Part shown: positions 6,921 through 42,375 of the stretch, piece by piece
Numbering within the stretch: position 1 is the stretch's first letter
Layout: each line of letters begins with the position of its first letter
Source of the DNA: a bacterium
GTDB taxonomy: Bacteria; Patescibacteriota; Minisyncoccia; CAIUEV01
NCBI GenBank assembly: GCA_021779255.1
Contig: JAJYBC010000003.1
Coordinates: forward strand, 1-42,568
DNA: 42,568 nt
Direction of reading: 5' to 3'
Made by a program: the position numbers and the translations under genes
The notes under the pieces: model-generated
The model's database searches: none
What the model was told of the DNA's origin: nothing
What the model saw: only the letters and a program-made list of their open reading frames with translations

Positions 6921-9106
6921 AATGATACTTTTTTTATAATTTTTAGTAATTCCCTAGATGCTTTTTCAACATCATGTCTTTCTAGGACCTTTTTAGCAGC
7001 ATTACCCCCTAATTTTTGAACGATATTTTTGTTTTGAGCAAGAAAAATTATTTTTTCAGCTACTTTCTCTACGTCAAGATATGGTATTACAAACCCACAA
7101 TCTTGTCCAACAAATTCAGGCATTCCTCCAGCAAGATCAAAACAAATAATGGGTTTTTTAAATAAAGCCGCCTGAAGACAAACAAGTGGGTAAGGATCTT
7201 CTCTAGAAGAAAGCAAAAATACATCTATCAAATAAAAATAATCAACCTTGTACTCAACAAAAAATATTTTATTTTTTAATTTCATCTTTTTTATGTCCTG
7301 TAAAACCCTTTCGAACTCTGCGTTATCGGTTCCTCCAATCCAAAGAAAAACAATAGGTAAATCAGATTTTTGTTTTACTAAATACGCAATTTGAGGATAA
7401 AGATCTAACCCCTTACGCCATTCAAGCGTTCCAGAAGCACCAACAACGAAAGCATTCTTTGGTATATCGAGGTCTCTTTCTAGACTGTCTCTACTACAAA
7501 AATTCTGGTTCTTTAAAAATTCGGATGTAGGTATATAGTCATGAACCAAAGCTATTTTGTCCTTAGCTATTTTATGATTATTTCTAAGATTTTCCACAAC
7601 AGATTGTGAGCTACCGATATAAAGATCCACAAGTTTTGACACTCTCGTGAACATTGTTTTGTCGCAAAAATAATTTATAGTGTTCGCTAACTCGTGTATA
7701 TAGTTAATTACTGGTAAATCTAAAAATTTTTTTATTTCCAGTATTGTTTTGCAACTTGCGACAGAATTTGCAAAAATTAAATCAAAATTTTGCTTAAGTA
7801 ATAACTTTATAAGATAATTTTTACCAACTACTTTTCTTAAACCGAGATACTTTATCAAATAATAGATTGGTCTAGGATAAATTGAATTCTGCTTATTTAT
7901 TAAATGCATATCTTTCATACAATAAGTTGGTGCTATATCTTCAAACTCATTTTTAATTTCTCCACCATCTTGAAGTAAAATTGAGAATTTTATATTCGTA
8001 TTTGCTTTCAGCCAACGTAAAAAATATAAAAGTACAATAGGTGCACCCGACTTTGAGGCATCGTGGCTAATAAAAAGAATTTTTCTTGATTGGTTAAAAT
8101 TTTCTTGTTTTACAAATATATTTTTTATTTTTAGAAATTTATCCCTAATTCTCCAAAAAATAGACAACTTCATTCTTCTAATTTCTTTATTTTTGTCTTT
8201 CAAATTTTTATCGAGGTTAGCAATCTCTTTGTTTTTTAAATGAATAACTTCTTTCAAATTTTTATCGAGGTTAGCAATCTCTTTGTTTTTTAAATGAATA
8301 ACTTCTTTCAAATTTTTATCGAGGTTAGCAATCTCTTTGTTTTTTAAATGAATAACTTCTTTCAAATTTTTATCGAGGTTAGCAATCTCTTTGTTTTTTA
8401 AATGAAGAGCATCCAACTCAATATTCAATTGATAATTTTTTCCATCTTCACTTAAAAAAGCGTATTTTCTTTGCATTTCGGATTCGCCTTTAAGTAAATT
8501 TTCATATTTTTTATTGTCCAACAAAATAACGCCCAGTCCAAAAGAATGATGGAACTCGACAGATTTATATTTCTTTTTTAACTCTTCCCAAAATTTATAA
8601 ACCCCAAAATCGTTTTCACTAACAAAAACATCATGGAACATAATTACTCCATCTTTTTTAACTTTTGGCAACCAACTTTCAAAATCGTGTTTAACGGCTT
8701 CATAGGTGTGAAGGCCATCAATATGAAGCAGATCGATTGATTGATCGGCAAAATCCGTCAAAGCTTTGTCGAAAGTTTTTCGGACTAAATTGATTTTTAA
8801 ATCCGGATAATATTTTTGTTGAATTTTTTTTACTCCTTCAAAAACTTCTTCGCCATAAAAACCAGCGTGTTTTTCGCCCTGCCAAGTGTCGACAGCAGAA
8901 ATTTCCGAGTTTATTTCTCCGTCCTTGACCGCTTGAGCAAAAGACCAAAGGGAAGTGCCCTTGTGAGTGCCAAGTTCAACAATAACTTCGGGCTTAAAAT
9001 TCCGCACAAAGTCATAAGCAAAATTCTTATGACCTGACCATGGCCAGCCAGTGTCGGCAAAGATTTCTTCGTATTCAAATTTTGGATCGTGGTATTGAAA
9101 AGACAT
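6917..9106 (-). CDS. Methyltransferase (Methyltransf_24-like) - coiled coil - GT4 glycosyltransferase fusion
   Basis: VELGTHKGTS, IDLLHIDGLHTYEAV and FHD in the N-terminal part; central 18-aa repeats; C-terminal SHDASKSGAP, RKGLD and SREDPYPLVCLQA. Confidence 0.85.
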   Translation of the reverse strand: MSFQYHDPKFEYEEIFADTGWPWSGHKNFAYDFVRNFKPEVIVELGTHKGTSLWSFAQAVKDGEINSEISAVDTWQGEKHAGFYGEEVFEGVKKIQQKYYPDLKINLVRKTFDKALTDFADQSIDLLHIDGLHTYEAVKHDFESWLPKVKKDGVIMFHDVFVSENDFGVYKFWEELKKKYKSVEFHHSFGLGVILLDNKKYENLLKGESEMQRKYAFLSEDGKNYQLNIELDALHLKNKEIANLDKNLKEVIHLKNKEIANLDKNLKEVIHLKNKEIANLDKNLKEVIHLKNKEIANLDKNLKDKNKEIRRMKLSIFWRIRDKFLKIKNIFVKQENFNQSRKILFISHDASKSGAPIVLLYFLRWLKANTNIKFSILLQDGGEIKNEFEDIAPTYCMKDMHLINKQNSIYPRPIYYLIKYLGLRKVVGKNYLIKLLLKQNFDLIFANSVASCKTILEIKKFLDLPVINYIHELANTINYFCDKTMFTRVSKLVDLYIGSSQSVVENLRNNHKIAKDKIALVHDYIPTSEFLKNQNFCSRDSLERDLDIPKNAFVVGASGTLEWRKGLDLYPQIAYLVKQKSDLPIVFLWIGGTDNAEFERVLQDIKKMKLKNKIFFVEYKVDYFYLIDVFLLSSREDPYPLVCLQAALFKKPIICFDLAGGMPEFVGQDCGFVIPYLDVEKVAEKIIFLAQNKNIVQKLGGNAAKKVLERHDVEKASRELLKIIKKVSL
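8196..8406. repeat. Perfect 54-bp tandem repeat, about 3.9 copies, encoding (HLKNKEIANLDKNLKEVI)n
   Basis: CTTTCAAATTTTTATCGAGG recurs at 8197, 8251, 8305 and 8359. Confidence 0.97.
9014..9106. repeat. 93-bp direct repeat, copy 1 (5' end of the methyltransferase-GT gene)
   Basis: 88/93 identical to 10558-10650 by manual alignment. Confidence 0.95.
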
Positions 9107-9123: not shown

Positions 9124-10545
9124 TTAATTTGAAATCTCCCAATAACCGCCCTTGTCGGGGCCAATGCGTTTTAGAAGGTTTTTTTGCTTGAGTTTTTCAA
9201 TATTGTTCCTAATATTTTTTTCATTTATTCCAATTTTCTCGCTCAATTTCCTCTGGGTTATCAGCGGATTTTTTCTTATTTGCTCAATAATTTTTTTTTG
9301 ACTCGTTGATAATTTTTCTAGGTCTTTTTCTAGGTCTTTTTCTAGGTCTTTTTCTAGGTCTTTTTCTAGGTCTTTTTCTAGGTCTTTTTCTAGGACACTG
9401 TGAACAATCACATCAAAACCGCTTGAATTTTCATTTATTTCCGGTTCCGGTAATCCGTATTCTTTGATTTGGTCAATTGCTCTTTTAACGCCACTTCCGT
9501 ATCTTTCAATCAAACCGCAATCACGAAAAATTTCGGCAACAGATTTGTTTCTAGGAAAAGATTTTTTATTACCTCTTTTTATATCTTCCATCGTTAATTC
9601 TTGAGGAATTTCTCCAACATTCCAAAAGATGATTTTATCAGGATAAATTTTAAATTGCGAATGAGTGCCTTCTCTGTAATCTCGATGAACAACTGCATTT
9701 ATGATAATTTCTCGCAAAGCTTCAATCGGATATTGCCAACGCTCCTCTCTTCTGGGATTACCGGTGAAAATATATTCCTTCAGAATATAGCTTTTAATAA
9801 AGTCTAGAACCTCTTCGACTTCCGTGACCAAGTCATTTCTTATCACTTTACTCTTTTTGATAATTGTATCCGTTTGAAATAGTCCAATTTGAATGTCAGT
9901 TTGACGAAGAGGATTTTTTGAAAAAAGAAGTAAACTGGCAAAAGTAGGATATTCCTTGCCTTTTTCCTCGACAATTAAAGAATATTTTCGTAAAAAACTT
10001 AAGTTATCCCCCAATTTTGTTTCTAGATTTTCTTCAATCAAATTTTTTATTTTGAATATTTTCTCTTGGTCAAGATCGTTCAATTTAGAATCTTTATCGG
10101 GATAAAAATCCCAACTAGAATTTTTTGTTTTTAAATATATATCAGCAACTTCCTGCAAAGATAAAATATGATTACTATTATTTTTTCTTATAAAATAACG
10201 ATTTTTAAAAGAAACTGGTTTTAAAGGAAACTCCATAATTTCCAAAATCGCTATTTTTCTATTATTTAAGTTGGATATTTCAATTTCTACATTTAGTCTC
10301 GGATAGGTTTTATTTTTTATTTCATTCAACCATTTTTGGACGCTTTCTCTGCTTATTTTTATACCAATTATTTTTCCCTTATTATTTACTCCCAAAATAA
10401 TTTTTCCGCCTTTACGATTAGCAAAAGCCACCAGTGTTTCAATCACTTCGTCACAAAAACTTTCCTTAAATTCTATATTATAGCCCTCACCTTGGCTTAT
10501 TAAGAATAACAGTTCTTTTTTCAATTCCTCGTCTATTTTTTTCAT
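9124..10545 (-). CDS. Schlafen/AlbA_2 domain - HATPase_c_4 - winged HTH protein (RecG C-terminal-like family)
   Basis: GEGYNIEFKES..VAFANRKGG (AlbA_2), ALREIIINAVVHRDY, PRN..AEIF..GLIERYGSG, C-terminal wHTH ending GPDKGGYWEI. Confidence 0.85.
   Translation of the reverse strand: MKKIDEELKKELLFLISQGEGYNIEFKESFCDEVIETLVAFANRKGGKIILGVNNKGKIIGIKISRESVQKWLNEIKNKTYPRLNVEIEISNLNNRKIAILEIMEFPLKPVSFKNRYFIRKNNSNHILSLQEVADIYLKTKNSSWDFYPDKDSKLNDLDQEKIFKIKNLIEENLETKLGDNLSFLRKYSLIVEEKGKEYPTFASLLLFSKNPLRQTDIQIGLFQTDTIIKKSKVIRNDLVTEVEEVLDFIKSYILKEYIFTGNPRREERWQYPIEALREIIINAVVHRDYREGTHSQFKIYPDKIIFWNVGEIPQELTMEDIKRGNKKSFPRNKSVAEIFRDCGLIERYGSGVKRAIDQIKEYGLPEPEINENSSGFDVIVHSVLEKDLEKDLEKDLEKDLEKDLEKDLEKLSTSQKKIIEQIRKNPLITQRKLSEKIGINEKNIRNNIEKLKQKNLLKRIGPDKGGYWEISN
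9313..9394. repeat. 12-bp tandem repeat TTTTTCTAGGTC, about 6.8 copies, encoding (LEKD)n
   Basis: Read directly from the sequence. Confidence 0.97.
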
Positions 10546-10554
10546 AAATAAATT

Positions 10555-10650
10555 TTAATAAGCAAAACGCTTATGACCTGACCAAGGCCAGCCGGTGTCG
10601 GCAAAGATTTCTTCGTATTCAAATTTTGGATCGTGGCATTGAAAAGACAT
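10555..10650 (-). pseudogene. Truncated duplicate of the methyltransferase 5' end (31-codon ORF MSFQCHDPKFEYEEIFADTGWPWSGHKRFAY*); copy 2 of the 93-bp repeat
   Basis: Matches the first 31 codons of 6917-9106 with 5 substitutions, then TAA at 10555-10557. Confidence 0.85.
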
Positions 10651-10674
10651 CGGATTTATTAGAGCAGAAATAAC

Positions 10675-10703
10675 TTGACAAGATTAAGATATCTGGTTAT
10701 ACT
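10675..10703 (+). promoter_or_regulatory. Near-consensus sigma70 promoter TTGACA-N17-TATACT
   Basis: -35 at 10675-10680 and -10 at 10698-10703; no plus-strand CDS follows. Confidence 0.65.
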
Positions 10704-10709
10704 TCTAGC

Positions 10710-10770
10710 ATAAAAGGACTTTCGGCCGTGGTTTATACACCACAAATTAGCGGAAAGTCTTTTTATTTTT
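10710..10770 (+). ncRNA. Candidate ~60-nt structured small RNA, or bidirectional terminator
   Basis: Outer stem AAAAGGACTTTC/GAAAGTCTTTTT, inner hairpin GTGGT-TTATAC-ACCAC, T-tract; begins about 7 nt after the -10 box. Confidence 0.4.
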
Positions 10771-10771
10771 A

Positions 10772-10800
10772 CTGGATCCCGCATTAAGTGCGGGATGACA
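10772..10800. repeat. Palindromic miniature repeat CTGGATCCCGCATTAAGTGCGGGATGACA (GTCAT..GATCCAG type)
   Basis: ATCCCGCA/TGCGGGAT stem; related degenerate copy at 21667-21697. Confidence 0.6.
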
Positions 10801-10845
10801 AGCTAAATAAATTTTGGTTAGAAAACTATATTTTTTTATGTTTTT

Positions 10846-10873
10846 ATTGTAGCAAACTTTTTCAAGATTACAA
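10846..10873 (-). promoter_or_regulatory. Possible sigma70 promoter TTGTAA-N16-TACAAT with extended -10 TG
   Basis: Motif match just downstream of the wzt stop, pointing toward the Schlafen-domain gene. Confidence 0.35.
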
Positions 10874-10881
10874 GATAAATT

Positions 10882-12237
10882 TTACCAGTGAAAATTCAAC
10901 TCGATCATCCCTTGTCGTTTAGATGTAGAGGCGATACGAAAAATTTTGGAACGATCAAGAAAATCAATGGTGTTTAATTCAGTACCCCTAAAAATACCCG
11001 CTTTGATATAGTAAGAATTGGTTTGTAAGGGATTTTTGGAATAGTTTATTTGAAAATACTTTTGCTTTAAAATTTTGGCCACCTCAATTTTATCAATGAA
11101 AGTATTCGTGCCGAAAATATAGTTATTTTCCTGAGTGAAAAGAGCAATGCCGAAATTCAAAATTTTGGCTGGTTTATTCTGTTTAAAATAGACTCTGACC
11201 GAGAGATCCTCCCCCGTTTTAAAAATATTTTTCACTTTGCCATCTTTGTCCAGAAATTCGACTTTGGTGATTTGGGCAATTTTCTTGGCTTGTCGGGGCA
11301 GGTCGCGTTGAGGTTGGGGCAGGTCGTGTTGAGGTTGGGGCAGGTCGTGTTGAGGTTGGGGCAGGTCGTGTTGAGGTTGGGGCAGGTCGTGTTGAGGTTG
11401 GGGCAGGTCGCGACCTGCCCTTACGGACGCCGCTTCGGCCTCTTTCTCGGCTTTTAATCGCAATCTTCTTTCTTCGTTAAATAATCTTTTCTCCTCGTCG
11501 CTCATGTTCTGATAGATATATTTATTGCCTACTTTTTCCGGGTCGCCAATCATAACGACTTTACCGGAACGCAGAAGCATGGCTCGATCACAGTAGCGTT
11601 GAACGGTGGCGATATCGTGCGTAACCAGAATAACCGTCTTGCCGGCGTCTTTGTACTTATTAAATTCTTCCATACATTTGGCTTGGAAATTGCTGTCTCC
11701 GACGGCCAGAACTTCGTCCATGAGGAGTATATCGCGATTAGCATGGATAGCCACGGAAAAAGCCAGTCTAACCTGCATACCGGAAGAATAATTTTTGACT
11801 TTTTGATCGATAAAACGTTTTAATTCGGAAAAAGAAACGATGTCATCAAATTTAGCGTCGATTTGTTTTTTGGTCAAACCTAAAACCGAGGCGTTAAGAT
11901 AGATATTATCACGACCGGAAAGTTCCGGATTGAAGCCGATGCCCAATTCCAAAAAAGGCGAGATTAAGCCGTCAACTTTTATTTTACCCGTATCGGGCGT
12001 ATAAATATTGGCTAGGATTTTGAGTAGCGTTGACTTGCCGGAACCGTTCCGGCCGATAATGCCAAAAAATTAGCCCTTTTTAATTTCAAAGGAAACATCG
12101 TTCAGCGCTTTGAATTTTTCATAACCCTTGTGGCCTCGAAAGGCACCAACAAAAGCCCCCCTGAGAGTTGAAACCTTTTCCTTGGGAATTTTGAAAGTCT
12201 TGGAAATATTTTGCACCGCAATAGCAATTTTGGACAT
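10882..12237 (-). pseudogene. wzt: Wzt/TagH-type polysaccharide ABC transporter ATPase with Wzt_C domain, interrupted by an in-frame TAA at codon 56
   Basis: Continuous frame MSKIAIAVQNISKTF...ALNDVSFEIKKG*FFGIIGRNGSGKSTLLK; YSSGM signature, LLMDEVLAVGD, VTHD; stop at 12070-12072. Confidence 0.85.
11292..11424. repeat. REP family B palindrome (11397-11424) preceded by five 21-bp tandem units, each holding one 14-bp arm; in frame, encodes (DLPQPQH)n
   Basis: Units GTTGGGGCAGGTCG+TGTTGAG at 11292 (variant), 11313, 11334, 11355 and 11376, then GTTGGGGCAGGTCG|CGACCTGCCCTTAC. Confidence 0.93.
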
Positions 12238-12288
12238 AGATTTATTCTAGCTTATTAATTTTAAATTTCCAAAAAACCAACAAGCTTT

Positions 12289-28360: not shown

Positions 28361-28388
28361 GTAACGACAGGTCGCGACCTGTTGTTAC
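28361..28388. repeat. REP family B, 28-bp palindrome GTAACGACAGGTCG|CGACCTGTTGTTAC (unamplified)
   Basis: GTA..TAC ends, GGTCGCGACC centre, one mismatch. Confidence 0.85.
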
Positions 28389-36390: not shown

Positions 36391-36418
36391 GCGGGGGCGT
36401 ATTGCAATACGCCCATCT
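36391..36418. repeat. REP family A degenerate copy flanking the RAYT 3' end
   Basis: GCGGGGGCGTATTGCAATACGCCCAT; a further decayed GTAGG.. copy may start at 36343. Confidence 0.85.
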
Positions 36419-36442
36419 GGGCGGGGTTATCCCGCCCTTTTT
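36419..36442 (+). terminator. GC hairpin plus T5 overlapping the RAYT stop
   Basis: GGGCGGG-GTTAT-CCCGCCC-TTTTT. Confidence 0.55.
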
Positions 36443-37014
36443 GATTGTTTGAAATTATTCCGATCATTTTCCCAATTGGTGGGGTTGCTTTTAATATATT
36501 CTTGGATACGTTCCAAATCAAATTTATCTTGAACAATATGTTCGTAATAATTACGTTGAAAAATTTTTCGACGATCAAAATGTTCGGTTTTTTCGTATAT
36601 TTGTGTCTCATTAATTTTTTTGGTTACGGTTGATTTGTATCCACGGACAATGGAACCCAAATTATTTTTGGGTGATTGAAACATCGGAGAAAATTGGGTA
36701 ATAATCGGTGTGGGTACATCCCGTAGGGGCGTATTGCAATACGCCCCTACAATGCGAATTATTACGTGAATATGATTCGGCATAATTATAAAATCACCCA
36801 ACTTGACATTTGTTCGTATTTTTGGTGTTTTTTGTAATTCGTCGTATGCAATTTTTCCAAATTTATTCAAATACATCTCCCCATTTTTGATTCGACCAAA
36901 CAAGCACTGCATTTGATAGGTGCAGATGGTGACAAAATACATTCCATTTTGGGAGTAATCATAATCTTTCAATCGTAAAGAATTGCGATAATATTTACCG
37001 GAAATAAATGTCAT
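36427..37014 (-). mobile_element. REP-associated tyrosine transposase (RAYT; Y1 HUH, IS200/IS605 superfamily)
   Basis: R.SLRL..YDYS..G.YFVTICT, HUH motif MPNHIH, FQRNYYEHIV, catalytic Tyr in YIKSNP; cognate palindromes nearby and inside. Confidence 0.92.
36723..36750. repeat. REP family A perfect copy inside the RAYT ORF, encoding VGAYCNTPL
   Basis: GTAGGGGCGTATTGCAATACGCCCCTAC. Confidence 0.97.
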
Positions 37015-39402: not shown

Positions 39403-39981
39403 CTATCTCTCCGCTTTCCCTAGGATTTCCTTTTTGTCGATCAAACCAAAGCGAGTGGAATCGATAGATCCTTCAACTAAATTGCCCAGAACCAGATAGG
39501 CATTTGGTGGTATTTTCCCTTGATAATCTTTAATATAGAGAGCCAACATTTCTTTTTCTTTTTCTCCCAGTTCATACGTTTTTTGTTCACTGTTAACAAC
39601 AATTTGACCATCAATCTCTATTTGCCATTTTTCTTTGTCATTCTTCAAATCTAATTTATCCCCCGGTATGCCTTTGATTGTTTTTAAAAGAGGATTGTCA
39701 TTACCAGCATAGGAAAGGGCTATTAGATCTCCTCTCTGAACTTTATGACAATTATAATAACCTTTGAGAATTTTAATGTTAGCATTTTCTTCCACTAGTC
39801 CCGTCATGGATTTGCCTCTCACCGTACGAGTTTCCGTTTCAATCGGACAAGAAGACGATTGGTCCACACTTTTTTCAGCTACATTTTTATTAGCAAAAAA
39901 ATAAAAATAACCCGCCAAAATTATCGCGATCAATAAACAAATTATTCCTGATAACACTGCCTGATTTGATTTTAATTTCAT
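39403..39981 (-). CDS. lepB: Signal peptidase I (S26)
   Basis: TM anchor, GKSM (Ser), LLKTIKGIPGD (Lys) and VLGN..S.DS..FG. Confidence 0.8.
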   Translation of the reverse strand: MKLKSNQAVLSGIICLLIAIILAGYFYFFANKNVAEKSVDQSSSCPIETETRTVRGKSMTGLVEENANIKILKGYYNCHKVQRGDLIALSYAGNDNPLLKTIKGIPGDKLDLKNDKEKWQIEIDGQIVVNSEQKTYELGEKEKEMLALYIKDYQGKIPPNAYLVLGNLVEGSIDSTRFGLIDKKEILGKAER

Positions 39982-40020: not shown

Positions 40021-40090
40021 ATACGGGCGGGTCGGTACGGGCGGGTCGGTACGGGCGGGTCGGTACGGGCGGGTCGCGACCCGCCCCTTC
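40021..40090. repeat. REP family B with one 14-bp arm repeated four times head-to-tail
   Basis: (A/G)TACGGGCGGGTCG at 40021, 40035, 40049 and 40063, then CGACCCGCCCCTTC. Confidence 0.95.
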
Positions 40091-40098
40091 TTACATTT

Positions 40099-42375
40099 TT
40101 ATATCCCGCATTCCACATTCAAACAATGATCGCCATCTTTGGTATGAAACAAGACCTGGCCACATTTAGGACATTTTTTATCCATTACCGGTTTGCCTTT
40201 GGCAATATATTTGCACTTAGGATATTGATTACAAGCATAAAAAGGACCACGACGTGAACGTTTTTCTACTAATTCGCCTTTACCGCATTCCGGACATTTG
40301 ATACCCAACTTTTTTTCAAACTTTTTAATAAATTTACATTTAGGATAATTACTGCAACCCATAAAACGACCGAAACGGCTTTGGCGTAAAACTAATGGTG
40401 ATCCGCATTCCGGACATTTTTCTTGACCAGCTTCCGCTTGCAATTTTTTTTCTTCCTCGTTAGCTTCGGTGTATTTACATTCCGGATAGCCGGAGCAAGC
40501 ATAAAAATTACCAAATTTACCAAATTTTTCAACCATCACCTTACCGCATTCCGGACAATTACGATCTAAAATTTTTTGAAATTTAGCTACTTCTTTTGTT
40601 TTTCGATCCAAATTTTCTTTAAAAGGATCATAAAATTCTCGAATAACCGGTATCCATTTTTTCTTGCCTTGAGCGATTTCATCCAAATCTTTTTCCATTT
40701 TAGCCGTAAAAGGGATTTCAACAATATTAGGGAAATGTTCCACTAAAATATCGTTGACAACGCAGCCTATCTCTTCGGGGAATAAACCTCCTCTTTCGTC
40801 TTTGGAAACATAGCTTCTTTCTTGAACGGTACTAATCGTTGGAGCGTAAGTGGATGGTCGACCGATACCATTTTCTTCCAAAGTCTTAATGAGTGTTGCT
40901 TCGGTATAGCGACCGGGCGGTTCGGTAAATTTTTGTTCTCCCAAAATTTTTTCTTTTTTGACTGTTTCTTGTTGAACTAGCTCGGGTAACAATTCCTCTT
41001 TTAAAACTTCCTTACCGAAAATTCGAAAAAAACCGTCAAAAGCGATTTGGGAACCACGCGATTGCAGCTCATAGAATCCTGCGGTAAAATTTACAATAGT
41101 GTTGTTAATCTCGGCATTGGCCATTTGAGAAGCAACCGTCCTTTCCCAAATCAAACGGTAAAGCCGGTACTGTTCTCCTGTCAAAGCCTGCTTAATTTTT
41201 TCCGGATCTTTTTCCACGTAAGTCGGTCTAATAGCCTCGTGAGCTTCCTGAGCTCCTTTGGCTTTCTGTCGAAAAAATCTTGGCTTATCCGGTAAATATT
41301 TTTGACCTAAATTTTGACTAACATATTTTTGAATAGAGCTCACCGCCAAAGAAGAAATATTCAGAGAATCCGTTCGCATATACGTTATTAATCCGACTCG
41401 TTTACCATCAACTTTTATACCTTCATAAAGTTGCTGCGCTACTCGCATAGTTCTTTTAGCCGGAAAACCAAAACGACGACCCGCCTCCTGTTGCAAAGTA
41501 CTGGTGCGAAAAGGCGGGGCAGGGGAACGAAGAGTTTTTTTCTGCTCGATATGACTCACTTTCATCTCCACTTGAGCCAAATCAGCGGTAATTATTTTAA
41601 TTTCTTCCTCTTTTTTTAAATCCAATCGAGCAATTTTTTTACCTTTAATCTTATTTAGCAAAGCAACATATCCTATTTCGGCCGTTTCCCGATTTAAATT
41701 TGCTACATCACCGGCTTTCTGGTTTTTAATGATTTCAACTTTAGTCAGAAAAGTTTTCTTATCTTCTTCTTTCTTTTTCTTATTCCAGACAACTCGAATT
41801 TTCCAATATTCTTCCGCCTTGAAATTTTCTCTTTCTCGTTCTCTTTCCACAATTAAACGAACTGCTACCGATTGAACTCGGCCGGCCGAAAGACCTTTTC
41901 GCACTTTTTTCCAAAGGAAAGGGGATAGTTGGTAGCCAACTAACCGATCGAGAATACGACGCGCTTGCTGAGCGTCAAAAAGATTTAAGTCAATCTCTCG
42001 AGGCTCGATTAAAGCTTTTTTGATGGCCGGTGGAGTAATTTCGTGAAAAGTAATCCTCTTGAAAATTAATTTTTTGTTTTTAGGAGCCAAAAGCTCTTTT
42101 AGATGGTATGCAATCGCTTCTCCTTCGCGGTCTTCATCGGTTGCCAGAATAATTTCTTGCGCTTTTTTGCTTTCTCTTTGGAGAATTCTAACATTTTTCG
42201 TCGCTTTAGGGGAAATAATATATTCCGGAGTAAAATCAGCCTTAACATCCACGCCTAAACGATCTTGAGGTAAATCACGCACATGGCCGAAAGAAGAAAG
42301 AACTTGATATTCTTTTTCTAGAAATCGACCGATGGTTCGCGCTTTAGTAGGGGATTCAACAATAACAAGACGCAT
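40099..42375 (-). CDS. topA: DNA topoisomerase I
   Basis: LVIVESPTKA, ATDEDREGEAI, SAGRVQS, ITYMRTD, QEAHEAIRPT and C-terminal C4 zinc ribbons. Confidence 0.98.
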   Translation of the reverse strand: MRLVIVESPTKARTIGRFLEKEYQVLSSFGHVRDLPQDRLGVDVKADFTPEYIISPKATKNVRILQRESKKAQEIILATDEDREGEAIAYHLKELLAPKNKKLIFKRITFHEITPPAIKKALIEPREIDLNLFDAQQARRILDRLVGYQLSPFLWKKVRKGLSAGRVQSVAVRLIVERERERENFKAEEYWKIRVVWNKKKKEEDKKTFLTKVEIIKNQKAGDVANLNRETAEIGYVALLNKIKGKKIARLDLKKEEEIKIITADLAQVEMKVSHIEQKKTLRSPAPPFRTSTLQQEAGRRFGFPAKRTMRVAQQLYEGIKVDGKRVGLITYMRTDSLNISSLAVSSIQKYVSQNLGQKYLPDKPRFFRQKAKGAQEAHEAIRPTYVEKDPEKIKQALTGEQYRLYRLIWERTVASQMANAEINNTIVNFTAGFYELQSRGSQIAFDGFFRIFGKEVLKEELLPELVQQETVKKEKILGEQKFTEPPGRYTEATLIKTLEENGIGRPSTYAPTISTVQERSYVSKDERGGLFPEEIGCVVNDILVEHFPNIVEIPFTAKMEKDLDEIAQGKKKWIPVIREFYDPFKENLDRKTKEVAKFQKILDRNCPECGKVMVEKFGKFGNFYACSGYPECKYTEANEEEKKLQAEAGQEKCPECGSPLVLRQSRFGRFMGCSNYPKCKFIKKFEKKLGIKCPECGKGELVEKRSRRGPFYACNQYPKCKYIAKGKPVMDKKCPKCGQVLFHTKDGDHCLNVECGI

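Follow-up and report, generated by a model that had tools for sequence, protein, structure and literature searches.

The window analysed here, the 42,568-nucleotide contig JAJYBC010000003.1 of GenBank assembly GCA_021779255.1 (positions 1 to 42,568; contig C1), belongs to a bacterial genome of 843,505 bp in 50 contigs, with 36.8% GC and an estimated completeness of 94%, designated G000. A wzt-like gene in this window contains, in frame, a palindrome of the repetitive extragenic palindromic (REP) type, here assigned to a family B, one arm of which is present as a tandem array that encodes a repeated peptide. The same anatomy, a direct array of single palindrome arms that ends in the predicted hairpin loop, recurs at other loci of this genome and in other genomes. 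The features of the wzt locus are as follows.

10882..12246, minus strand: wzt-like gene for an ABC ATPase with a Wzt_C domain; open reading frame (ORF) 10882-12069 gives a 395-amino-acid frame
11401..11420, no strand assigned: family-B REP, perfect palindrome core of 20 bp within a 28-bp frame (11397-11424), centre between 11410 and 11411
11292..11410, no strand assigned: left-arm tandem array, six arm copies in a 21-bp unit (arm plus 11 bases), stopping at the palindrome centre

In a profile search, an ABC_tran domain (PF00005, amino acids 3-120, 1.6e-17) precedes a Wzt_C domain (PF14524, amino acids 259-390, 5.4e-23), and both this domain pair and the aligned orthologs identify the predicted product as Wzt, the ATPase of an O-antigen or glycan ABC exporter with a C-terminal binding domain. 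Homologues found by protein search that are 61-62% identical to it carry the names 'Parcubacteria group' and 'Candidatus Moranbacteria', a hint that G000 is of Patescibacteria (CPR) affiliation. The window has an in-frame TAA at 12070-12072 (minus strand), just ahead of the Walker A motif. Because seven of seven aligned Wzt orthologs have Glu at this position, and because position 12072 is C, giving GAA, in the Logan contigs of all three runs that cover the site (out of four runs, from one study, that served as an independent check of the window assembly), wzt is probably intact in the sampled population, and the TAA is probably a minor variant or an assembly consensus error.

The REP and its array encode approximately amino acids 208-250 of the 395-amino-acid frame, which correspond to the hypervariable linker between the two domains. 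The minus-strand ORF 10882-12069 reads ...VRAGRDLPQPQHDLPQPQH... across the REP and the array, in frame, and the translation over the array is ...SVRAGRDLPQPQH(DLPQPQH)3DLPQPQRDLPRQAKK.... Within the 4-nt feet of the 28-bp frame (GTTG...TTAC), the outermost two positions alone pair. The predicted hairpin has an 8-bp stem and a CGCG loop (-9.3 kcal/mol, z -4.5), and none of 200 shuffled sequences was equally stable. Copies of the arm lie 0, 21, 42, 63, 84 and 105 nt to the left of the centre, and Tandem Repeats Finder (TRF), with which tandem repeats were called throughout, reports 21 bp x 5.5 at 11295-11410 with 98% matches and a score of 225. The final unit is the palindrome's own arm, the four inner units are identical (GTTG...GTG), and the distal unit is changed at two positions (GTCG...GCG); the first unit retains GCG, reaching 2 nt beyond the centre.

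Two further family-B sites lie in the window.

28361..28388, no strand assigned: solo, unamplified family-B REP, intergenic, upstream of ileS, with 16-nt arms at 94%
40022..40086, no strand assigned: second family-B REP with an array, palindrome 40067-40086, GTAC-side arm repeated as a 14-bp unit

The second array (40022-40076) was called by TRF as 14 bp x 3.9 at 100% identity. It stops where palindrome 40067-40086 has its centre and lies in the intergenic space that separates topA (40099-42375, minus strand) from a signal-peptidase-like gene (39403-39981, minus strand). The solo REP has a predicted hairpin of -8.6 kcal/mol (z -4.65), and the predicted folds of the family-B stems tested have 8-12 bp, -8.6 to -9.3 kcal/mol, and z of about -4.5. 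A preliminary description, made from the letters of the window alone, had reported an in-frame 28-bp palindrome between the ABC and Wzt_C domains with one arm repeated five more times, a second array at about 40021-40090, and an unamplified copy at 28361-28388; all three are borne out, the palindrome being perfect over 20 bp and the wzt arm being present six times at offsets 0-105.

The preliminary description had also made the reality of the arrays depend on reads that span them, a point settled in part. Logan contig X1 (10741-11336) contains the left flank and the first two wzt units, contigs X2 and X3 (from 11381) contain the last unit, the palindrome and the right flank, and a 51-nt loop unitig inside the array is present in four of four runs at 1.5-3.6 times the depth of the flank. 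Both junctions and the interior are thus covered by independent contigs; no Logan contig of the four runs spans the whole array, the contigs break there, and the count of six copies comes from the window assembly.

The G000 genome contains 34 dispersed family-B sites when up to two mismatches are tolerated over 14 fixed bases. The exact core GGTCGCGACC occurs 31 times, compared with about 0.1 expected from base composition, and a control pattern read backwards has 0 matches, compared with 24 for the family-B pattern. The palindrome is a REP-type element, as the preliminary description had proposed, and probably of the 'double-foot' kind, with 10+10 GC-rich base pairs and 4-nt feet of the GT[AG]G/GTAC type; in G000 the feet are GTAC or GTTG on one side and GAAG, ACAG and others on the other, the wzt copy having GTTG...TTAC. 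A dif-like 11-6-11 tyrosine-recombinase site, telomere-resolvase sites, iterons, CRISPR/TIGR arrays and terminators were considered and dropped because none of them fits the anatomy: the 34 copies are dispersed, spacers are absent, and the hairpins inspected are not followed by T-runs.

Among 40 sampled relatives of G000 (genome sizes 0.5-1.2 Mb), the family-B pattern was found in G003 only, at two sites, which suggested a lineage-specific family until scans of metagenomes and GTDB genomes overturned the idea. The scans for a 24-nt REP core, with four two-fold degenerate positions and the rest exact, gave at least 120 stretches in metagenomes and at least 118 in GTDB species genomes. Among the matches listed, from which all metagenome and GTDB counts below are drawn, the GTDB isolate hosts include Flavobacterium, Aequorivita, Rufibacter and Pontibacter, the GTDB hosts known as metagenome-assembled genomes include Saprospiraceae, Chitinophagaceae, Magasanik-, Falkow- and Saccharibacteria, one WOR-1 and one gammaproteobacterial genome, and the commonest foot pairs are GTAG-arm/arm-GTAC and GTAG...CTAC. 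That cultured Bacteroidota, several Patescibacteria lineages, the WOR-1 genome and the gammaproteobacterial genome share the 24-nt core (loci L156-L273) implies horizontal spread of a putative pair of REP and REP-associated tyrosine transposase (RAYT), and strong constraint on the REP sequence.

The candidate RAYT gene of the window, and the palindromes associated with it, are the following.

36427..37014, minus strand: RAYT-like gene with motifs NHIH, FQ and YIKSNP; NF047646 65 bits (cut-off 80), PF01797 33 bits (cut-off 23)
36723-36750: family-A REP, in frame inside this gene, just past the HUH motif
36395-36414: A-like palindrome just 3' of its stop codon

G000 has two RAYT-like genes, which score 65-69 bits against the NCBIfam model, below its cut-off of 80, and are both above the Pfam cut-off. 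The other, on contig C48, has the motifs NHIH, WQ and YIRNNP. The account of RAYT/TnpAREP subclass 2.4 by Quentin et al. (2018, PMC6006769) gives as hallmarks 'double-foot' REPs and REPs in frame inside tnpAREP, with the motifs NH[IFV]H (HuH), WQ and YIxNNP (Y-motif). By their motifs, both genes of G000 fall within the definition of this subclass, and the window gene also has the in-frame REP. Family B itself was found inside RAYT-like genes in other genomes: where the window RAYT of G000 has its family-A REP, the G003 ortholog has one of family B, with an arm duplication of 24 nt, and 20 ORFs with NHxH and Yx..NP motifs contain the family-B centre among the matches listed. All six of the RAYT-motif ORFs that were tested match NF047646 (REP-associated tyrosine transposase) at 46-69 bits, under the cut-off of 80, and two RAYT genes among the matches listed (L199 and L028) hold half-arm arrays within themselves. 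A REP inside a RAYT gene is in itself an already known trait, according to the description of subclass 2.4 (PMC6006769).

Other palindromes and repeats were noted around RAYT loci. Copies of a third palindrome, inverted relative to each other, stand on either side of the C48 RAYT gene (C48 36288-37209; L001 1140-2090), each with a perfect 23-bp array on its outer side (x5.0 and x6.4) whose units are not palindrome arms. A similar, decayed locus at about 1600-2550 of contig C16 has three related palindromes and arrays of 21-30 bp.

The amplification of single arms of family B is frequent. Taking a further direct copy of the arm within 45 nt as the criterion for a half-arm array, 17 of the 34 sites in G000 qualify, compared with 1081 of 20000 random 10-mers (5.4%). 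In a survey limited to perfect cores that lie 60 nt or more from the end of a sequence, with whole second hairpins set aside, half-arm arrays were found at 15 of 29 centres in G000, 21 of 150 in metagenome loci (14%) and 36 of 150 in GTDB loci (24%), the latter two among the matches listed. Cultured strains are included among these matches, with a 15 bp x 4 array in Flavobacterium orientale and an array in Aequorivita capsosiphonis. The effect is strongly family-specific in G000: by class of palindrome, half-arm copies accompany 13 of 20 family-B, 1 of 7 family-A, 1 of 4 other loopless and 1 of 36 other looped palindromes, that is, 13/20 for family B and 3/47 for the rest.

The first units on the amplified sides in G000 are 13 bp (1 side), 14 bp (6), 15 bp (5), 21 bp (1), 24 bp (2) and 27 bp (1) long, so that 12 of 16 sides have units of 13-15 bp; the commonest unit in GTDB loci is 15 bp (12 of 42 sides among the matches listed). 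The unit thus usually consists of the arm (10 nt), the foot (4 nt) and 0-1 further nucleotides, and boundaries of this kind recur across three arm variants. Single-arm amplification is a recurrent event with several independent origins, in agreement with the preliminary description, and units of 13, 14, 15, 21, 24 and 27 bp are found on the three arm variants.

That description had placed the inner boundary of the arrays at the symmetry centre of the palindrome and had predicted that boundaries at other loci would not be random relative to it. The prediction is sustained, and the position needs amendment. Over 80 array sides, homology of the repeat extends past the centre by 0 nt in 30, 1 nt in 15, 2 nt in 25, 3 nt in 7 and at least 4 nt in 3, whereas chance would give about 75/19/5/1%. 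The ends cluster near the centre, and 35 of 80 sides run at least 2 nt beyond it. Because these ends lie within the predicted 4-nt CGCG loop, the proximal breakpoint is placed in that predicted loop (-2 to +2) and not strictly at the symmetry centre.

Relatives of the wzt gene indicate where the new units were added. No strain-level relative of this Wzt was found by protein search, the next best match, P0002, being 70% identical. The same linker in P0002 reads AGRDLPQLQRDLPQP, which corresponds to the REP together with another copy of the arm at a distance of 7 residues (21 nt); this separate organism provides independent support, from its protein sequence, for the reality of the wzt array, and its two-copy state suggests an old founding duplication that may have been expanded later. 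When the coding strands of the wzt linkers are aligned, the distal unit of G000 (CGACCTGCCCCGAC then AAGCC) matches the right arm and flank of the palindrome in G003; the linker of G005 has an arm-like remnant only, and the arm-encoded PRQ is kept in all three proteins (G000, G003 and G005). Because the distal unit aligns with the right arm and flank of the ortholog, the five additional units of G000 lie between the centre and the ancestral arm. The preliminary description had taken the unit to be the arm plus 7 adjacent base pairs; that these come from the ancestral flank is contradicted by the orthologs, since they put the new units between the centre and the ancestral arm, and by the CTCAAC tail of the wzt unit, which has no other occurrence, and no donor, in the assembled G000 genome. 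The Wzt ortholog of G003 has the opposite arm duplicated at the same site.

Of 36 arrays that have three or more copies of the arm, 14 show greater divergence in the distal copy and 5 in the proximal one; in the other 17 the two are equal. Distal units repeatedly show the change CGACC to CGATC at independent loci (G000 C5 3844, C33 7968 and C48 4132; G003 L003 at about 1520), which could be due to recurrent deamination or to selection against pairing.

Family-B REPs also lie within ORFs. In G000 these ORFs encode methionyl-tRNA synthetase, KsgA, MiaA, a TPR protein, YdjC, methyltransferases, an LTD protein, a PD-(D/E)XK nuclease and a NusA-like C-terminal tail, with intragenic sites at C32 6765, C40 6130, C48 15168, C39 7990, C2 7877, C15 8989 and C9 2193. 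The new peptide repeats anticipated by the preliminary description are present in frame: in Wzt the repeat is (DLPQPQH)n, and in the NusA-like tail it is (DLPVQ)3. Six of eight intragenic arrays have a unit divisible by 3 and a seventh (14+16) totals 30, compared with one of six intergenic arrays (one-sided Fisher test calculated by hand, approximately 0.05). Since the intragenic arrays keep the reading frame, which an assembler cannot know, this contrast argues that the arrays are biological.

Some observations concern the surroundings of wzt. The adjoining genes hold perfect tandem repeats in coding sequence: 54 bp x 3.9 at 8196-8406, in a 729-amino-acid methyltransferase/glycosyltransferase-like protein, and 12 bp x 6.8 at 9313-9394, encoding (EKDL)n in a 473-amino-acid protein. 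G000 seems generally permissive for tandem arrays. Downstream of wzt, 10555-10683 is a short fragment similar to the N-terminus of the 729-amino-acid protein. Logan contigs X1 and X2 link 10650 to 12241 with three extra letters; this joint was considered as a deletion of wzt and dropped, as its shorter side is 38 nt with 4 mismatches, followed by unlike sequence, and it probably derives from another organism or a repeat.

Perfect palindromes that are centred on a family-B REP and extend 25-60 nt into unique flanking sequence were noted exactly at contig ends (G000 C26 1-56; L031, L049, L058, L064, L067 and L099), where they look like assembler turn-arounds at a palindromic k-mer. Those found within long contigs (L056, L074 and L095), where the extension is shorter (7-31 nt), may be real.

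The account that we tentatively prefer, and to which we give slightly less than an even chance, is a two-step model seeded by a RAYT, in which a nick in the loop would duplicate an arm and slippage would follow; a hairpin or a RAYT nick had also been proposed as the trigger in the preliminary description. The REP would have entered Wzt in frame, long ago, at the linker that joins the ATPase domain to Wzt_C and tolerates changes of length. In a rare seeding step, the single-stranded REP would fold into a hairpin, a nick within the 4-nt CGCG loop would provide a 3'-OH to be extended, and a second cut just past the foot, with strand transfer, would leave one added unit of arm, foot and, in some cases, a short spacer; the nicking enzyme would most likely be a RAYT-type HUH nuclease. 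Once two or more units are present, the single opposite arm could pair with any of the arm copies, and the resulting slipped hairpins would let ordinary replication slippage grow or shrink the array, with the outcome that identical inner units build up and the oldest unit stays at the distal edge. Within genes, hardly any arrays would persist except those that preserve the frame, and these would give rise to peptide repeats such as (DLPQPQH)n; the extension of the Wzt linker is probably tolerated and near-neutral. By our reasoning, a break or nick in the loop is the most economical seed because simple slippage has no misalignment partner for the first arm duplication. The slippage step fits because the four inner wzt units are identical and because P0002 has 2 copies where G000 has 6. 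In predicted minimum-energy folds of both window arrays, the lone opposite arm pairs with non-adjacent arm copies.

Several observations weigh against this model. No RAYT of G000 is tied to family B, the window gene having family A and the C48 gene the third palindrome. Published TnpAREP cuts are at CT dinucleotides, between C and T, beside the hairpin and not in the loop; the CG-variant arm has no CT, so that the rule followed by the enzymes of E. coli and S. maltophilia was discarded as not fitting. Either arm can be amplified. The preference for the GTAC side seemed absolute in G000; across the wider sets it falls to about 2:1 (46 versus 22 sides), a figure that the search pattern itself skews. 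Other palindromes in the fetched loci have half-arm copies in 12 of 92 cases, versus 52 of 252 for family B (among the matches listed), and the polarity of growth is weak (14 versus 5, with 17 ties). An identical 24-bp unit, including a 10-nt spacer, is found in two unrelated genes (C9 2193 and C15 8989), which the mobilisation of a ready-made composite would explain as well as local copying does. The model does not account for the wzt spacer CTCAAC, and the six-copy count at wzt rests on a single assembly.

The same arrays might arise with no transposase, from an error of host replication or repair at a perfect palindrome, in which a tip break or fork stall (through a hairpin-loop nuclease, for example, or fork reversal at a hairpin or cruciform tip) would be followed by misrepair or microhomology re-priming and then by slippage. 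Breakpoints in the predicted loop and unit ends near the hairpin foot are structural landmarks that would need no sequence-specific enzyme, and this explanation also accommodates the amplification of both arms (46 versus 22 sides, and the opposite arm duplicated at the same site in G003), the half-arm copies at unrelated palindromes of other genomes (the 12 of 92 among the matches listed) and the richness of G000 in perfect tandem arrays without palindromes, such as those at 8196-8406 and 9313-9394. We nevertheless regard it as unlikely, if not markedly so: in G000 the effect is specific to family B (13/20 versus 3/47) although family A is also a loopless perfect palindrome, the boundaries at arm plus foot plus 0 or 1 nt are repeated on three arm variants, and simple slippage again lacks, in our reasoning, a partner for the first duplication. 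It is improbable that the units were instead pasted in, with a half-REP or a composite of REP and array moving as single-stranded DNA into the loop or foot of a resident REP. The foot of inner units does differ from that of the resident distal arm (GTAC versus CTAC at L052 and L068, CAAC versus CGAC in wzt), and the 24-bp unit shared by two unrelated genes would suit such movement; yet one point change in the foot accounts equally well for L052 and L068, and the tail of the wzt unit has no donor anywhere in the assembled G000. We know of no precedent for transposition of a 14-nt unit.

That the arrays are artefacts of assembly from palindromic k-mers is very improbable, even though the long palindromes at contig ends resemble assembler turn-arounds (G000 C26, L031, L049, L058, L064, L067 and L099) and no contig in the four runs spans the wzt array. 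The Logan contigs of all four runs contain the k-mers of the junctions and of the loop, reading frame is kept by the intragenic arrays and mostly not by the intergenic ones, arrays are found in isolate genomes and in hundreds of independent assemblies, and the Wzt of a separate organism, P0002, has two arm copies at the same spot.

The preliminary description did not recognise this amplification as a described behaviour of REPs, which holds for the single-arm arrays, as far as the literature searched goes, and not for their setting. REPs in ORFs, REPs in tnpAREP, tandem clusters of whole REPs, BIMEs or REPINs, and models of amplification by RAYTs, including nick-primed ones, are all published. 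As described in PMC6006769, the subclass 2.4 system resembles the present one in a hairpin that is rich in GC and, in the wider family, bears a GT[AG]G foot at the 5' end and the complement at the 3' end, many dispersed copies, RAYT motifs like NH[IFV]H and YIxNNP, in-frame REPs in tnpAREP, and an occurrence in Bacteroidetes and scattered phyla. The passages on that subclass make no mention of direct single-arm arrays, and in G000, unlike there, the second foot is decayed (GAAG and others) and family B has no RAYT.

In the published accounts of its activity, TnpAREP cuts single-stranded DNA next to the REP to which it is bound, becomes attached through a 5'-phosphotyrosine link and carries out strand transfer, and Ton-Hoang et al. 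(2012, PMC3333891) present a model of nick-primed addition of one unit between two cleavage sites. BIME-2 and tandem REPIN clusters, as they are described there and in Nunvar et al. (2010, PMC2817692) and Bertels & Rainey (2011, PMC3116915), likewise involve local head-to-tail amplification of REP units with variable copy number, and these papers likewise propose that a RAYT cleaves the DNA, that the 3'-OH serves as primer, and that another cleavage and strand transfer follow. As reported, their units are whole REPs, or inverted pairs with linkers, of tens to hundreds of base pairs, whereas the units here comprise half a hairpin in 13-27 bp with one boundary in the loop; they are direct copies of arm and foot, with no second whole hairpin, and are thus neither BIMEs nor REPINs. 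According to Di Nocera et al. (2013, PMC3733652), palindromic elements in genes, both REPs and those of Rickettsia, are likewise in frame and tolerated, including in replication, repair and tRNA-synthetase genes, and clusters of palindromic repeats in genes encode tens of residues. In the cases described there the inserted peptide comes from whole elements, whereas here it comes mostly from amplification of one arm after insertion. Full-text searches of the literature found no account of one REP arm repeated directly from an anchor at the hairpin loop, although examples may be held in supplements (PMC6006769 Figure S10, PMC3733652 Additional file 3).

Expansion of minisatellites, or variable-number tandem repeats (VNTRs), by slipped-strand mispairing gives identical inner units, diverged edges and a copy number that varies between relatives. 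The arrays described here have the same features (2 versus 6 copies in wzt) and differ from an ordinary VNTR in that one side is anchored to the centre of a mobile palindrome, whose structure sets the unit.

In the portions of the REP literature considered here, the route by which REPs multiply is given as unknown or in models only, and half-hairpin arrays limit where DNA is cut and re-copied. The arrays are present in cultured Flavobacterium, Aequorivita and Rufibacter, which makes them testable at the bench. For assembly and annotation they are a warning, as half-arm arrays break contigs and create VNTR-like sites. In Patescibacteria, whose genomes are small, they also represent a route by which a selfish hairpin makes variable linkers that are in frame and of low complexity. 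It is possible, although on balance doubtful, that half-REP arrays are genomic footprints of a RAYT whose cuts fall within the hairpin loop and immediately beyond the foot, and which repeatedly adds single arms. If this is the case, the boundaries of arrays across hundreds of Bacteroidota and Patescibacteria genomes would map the cleavage sites and record REP amplification in progress, and a by-product would be frame-preserving peptide repeats in genes, including essential ones (Wzt, NusA-like, and the RAYT itself).

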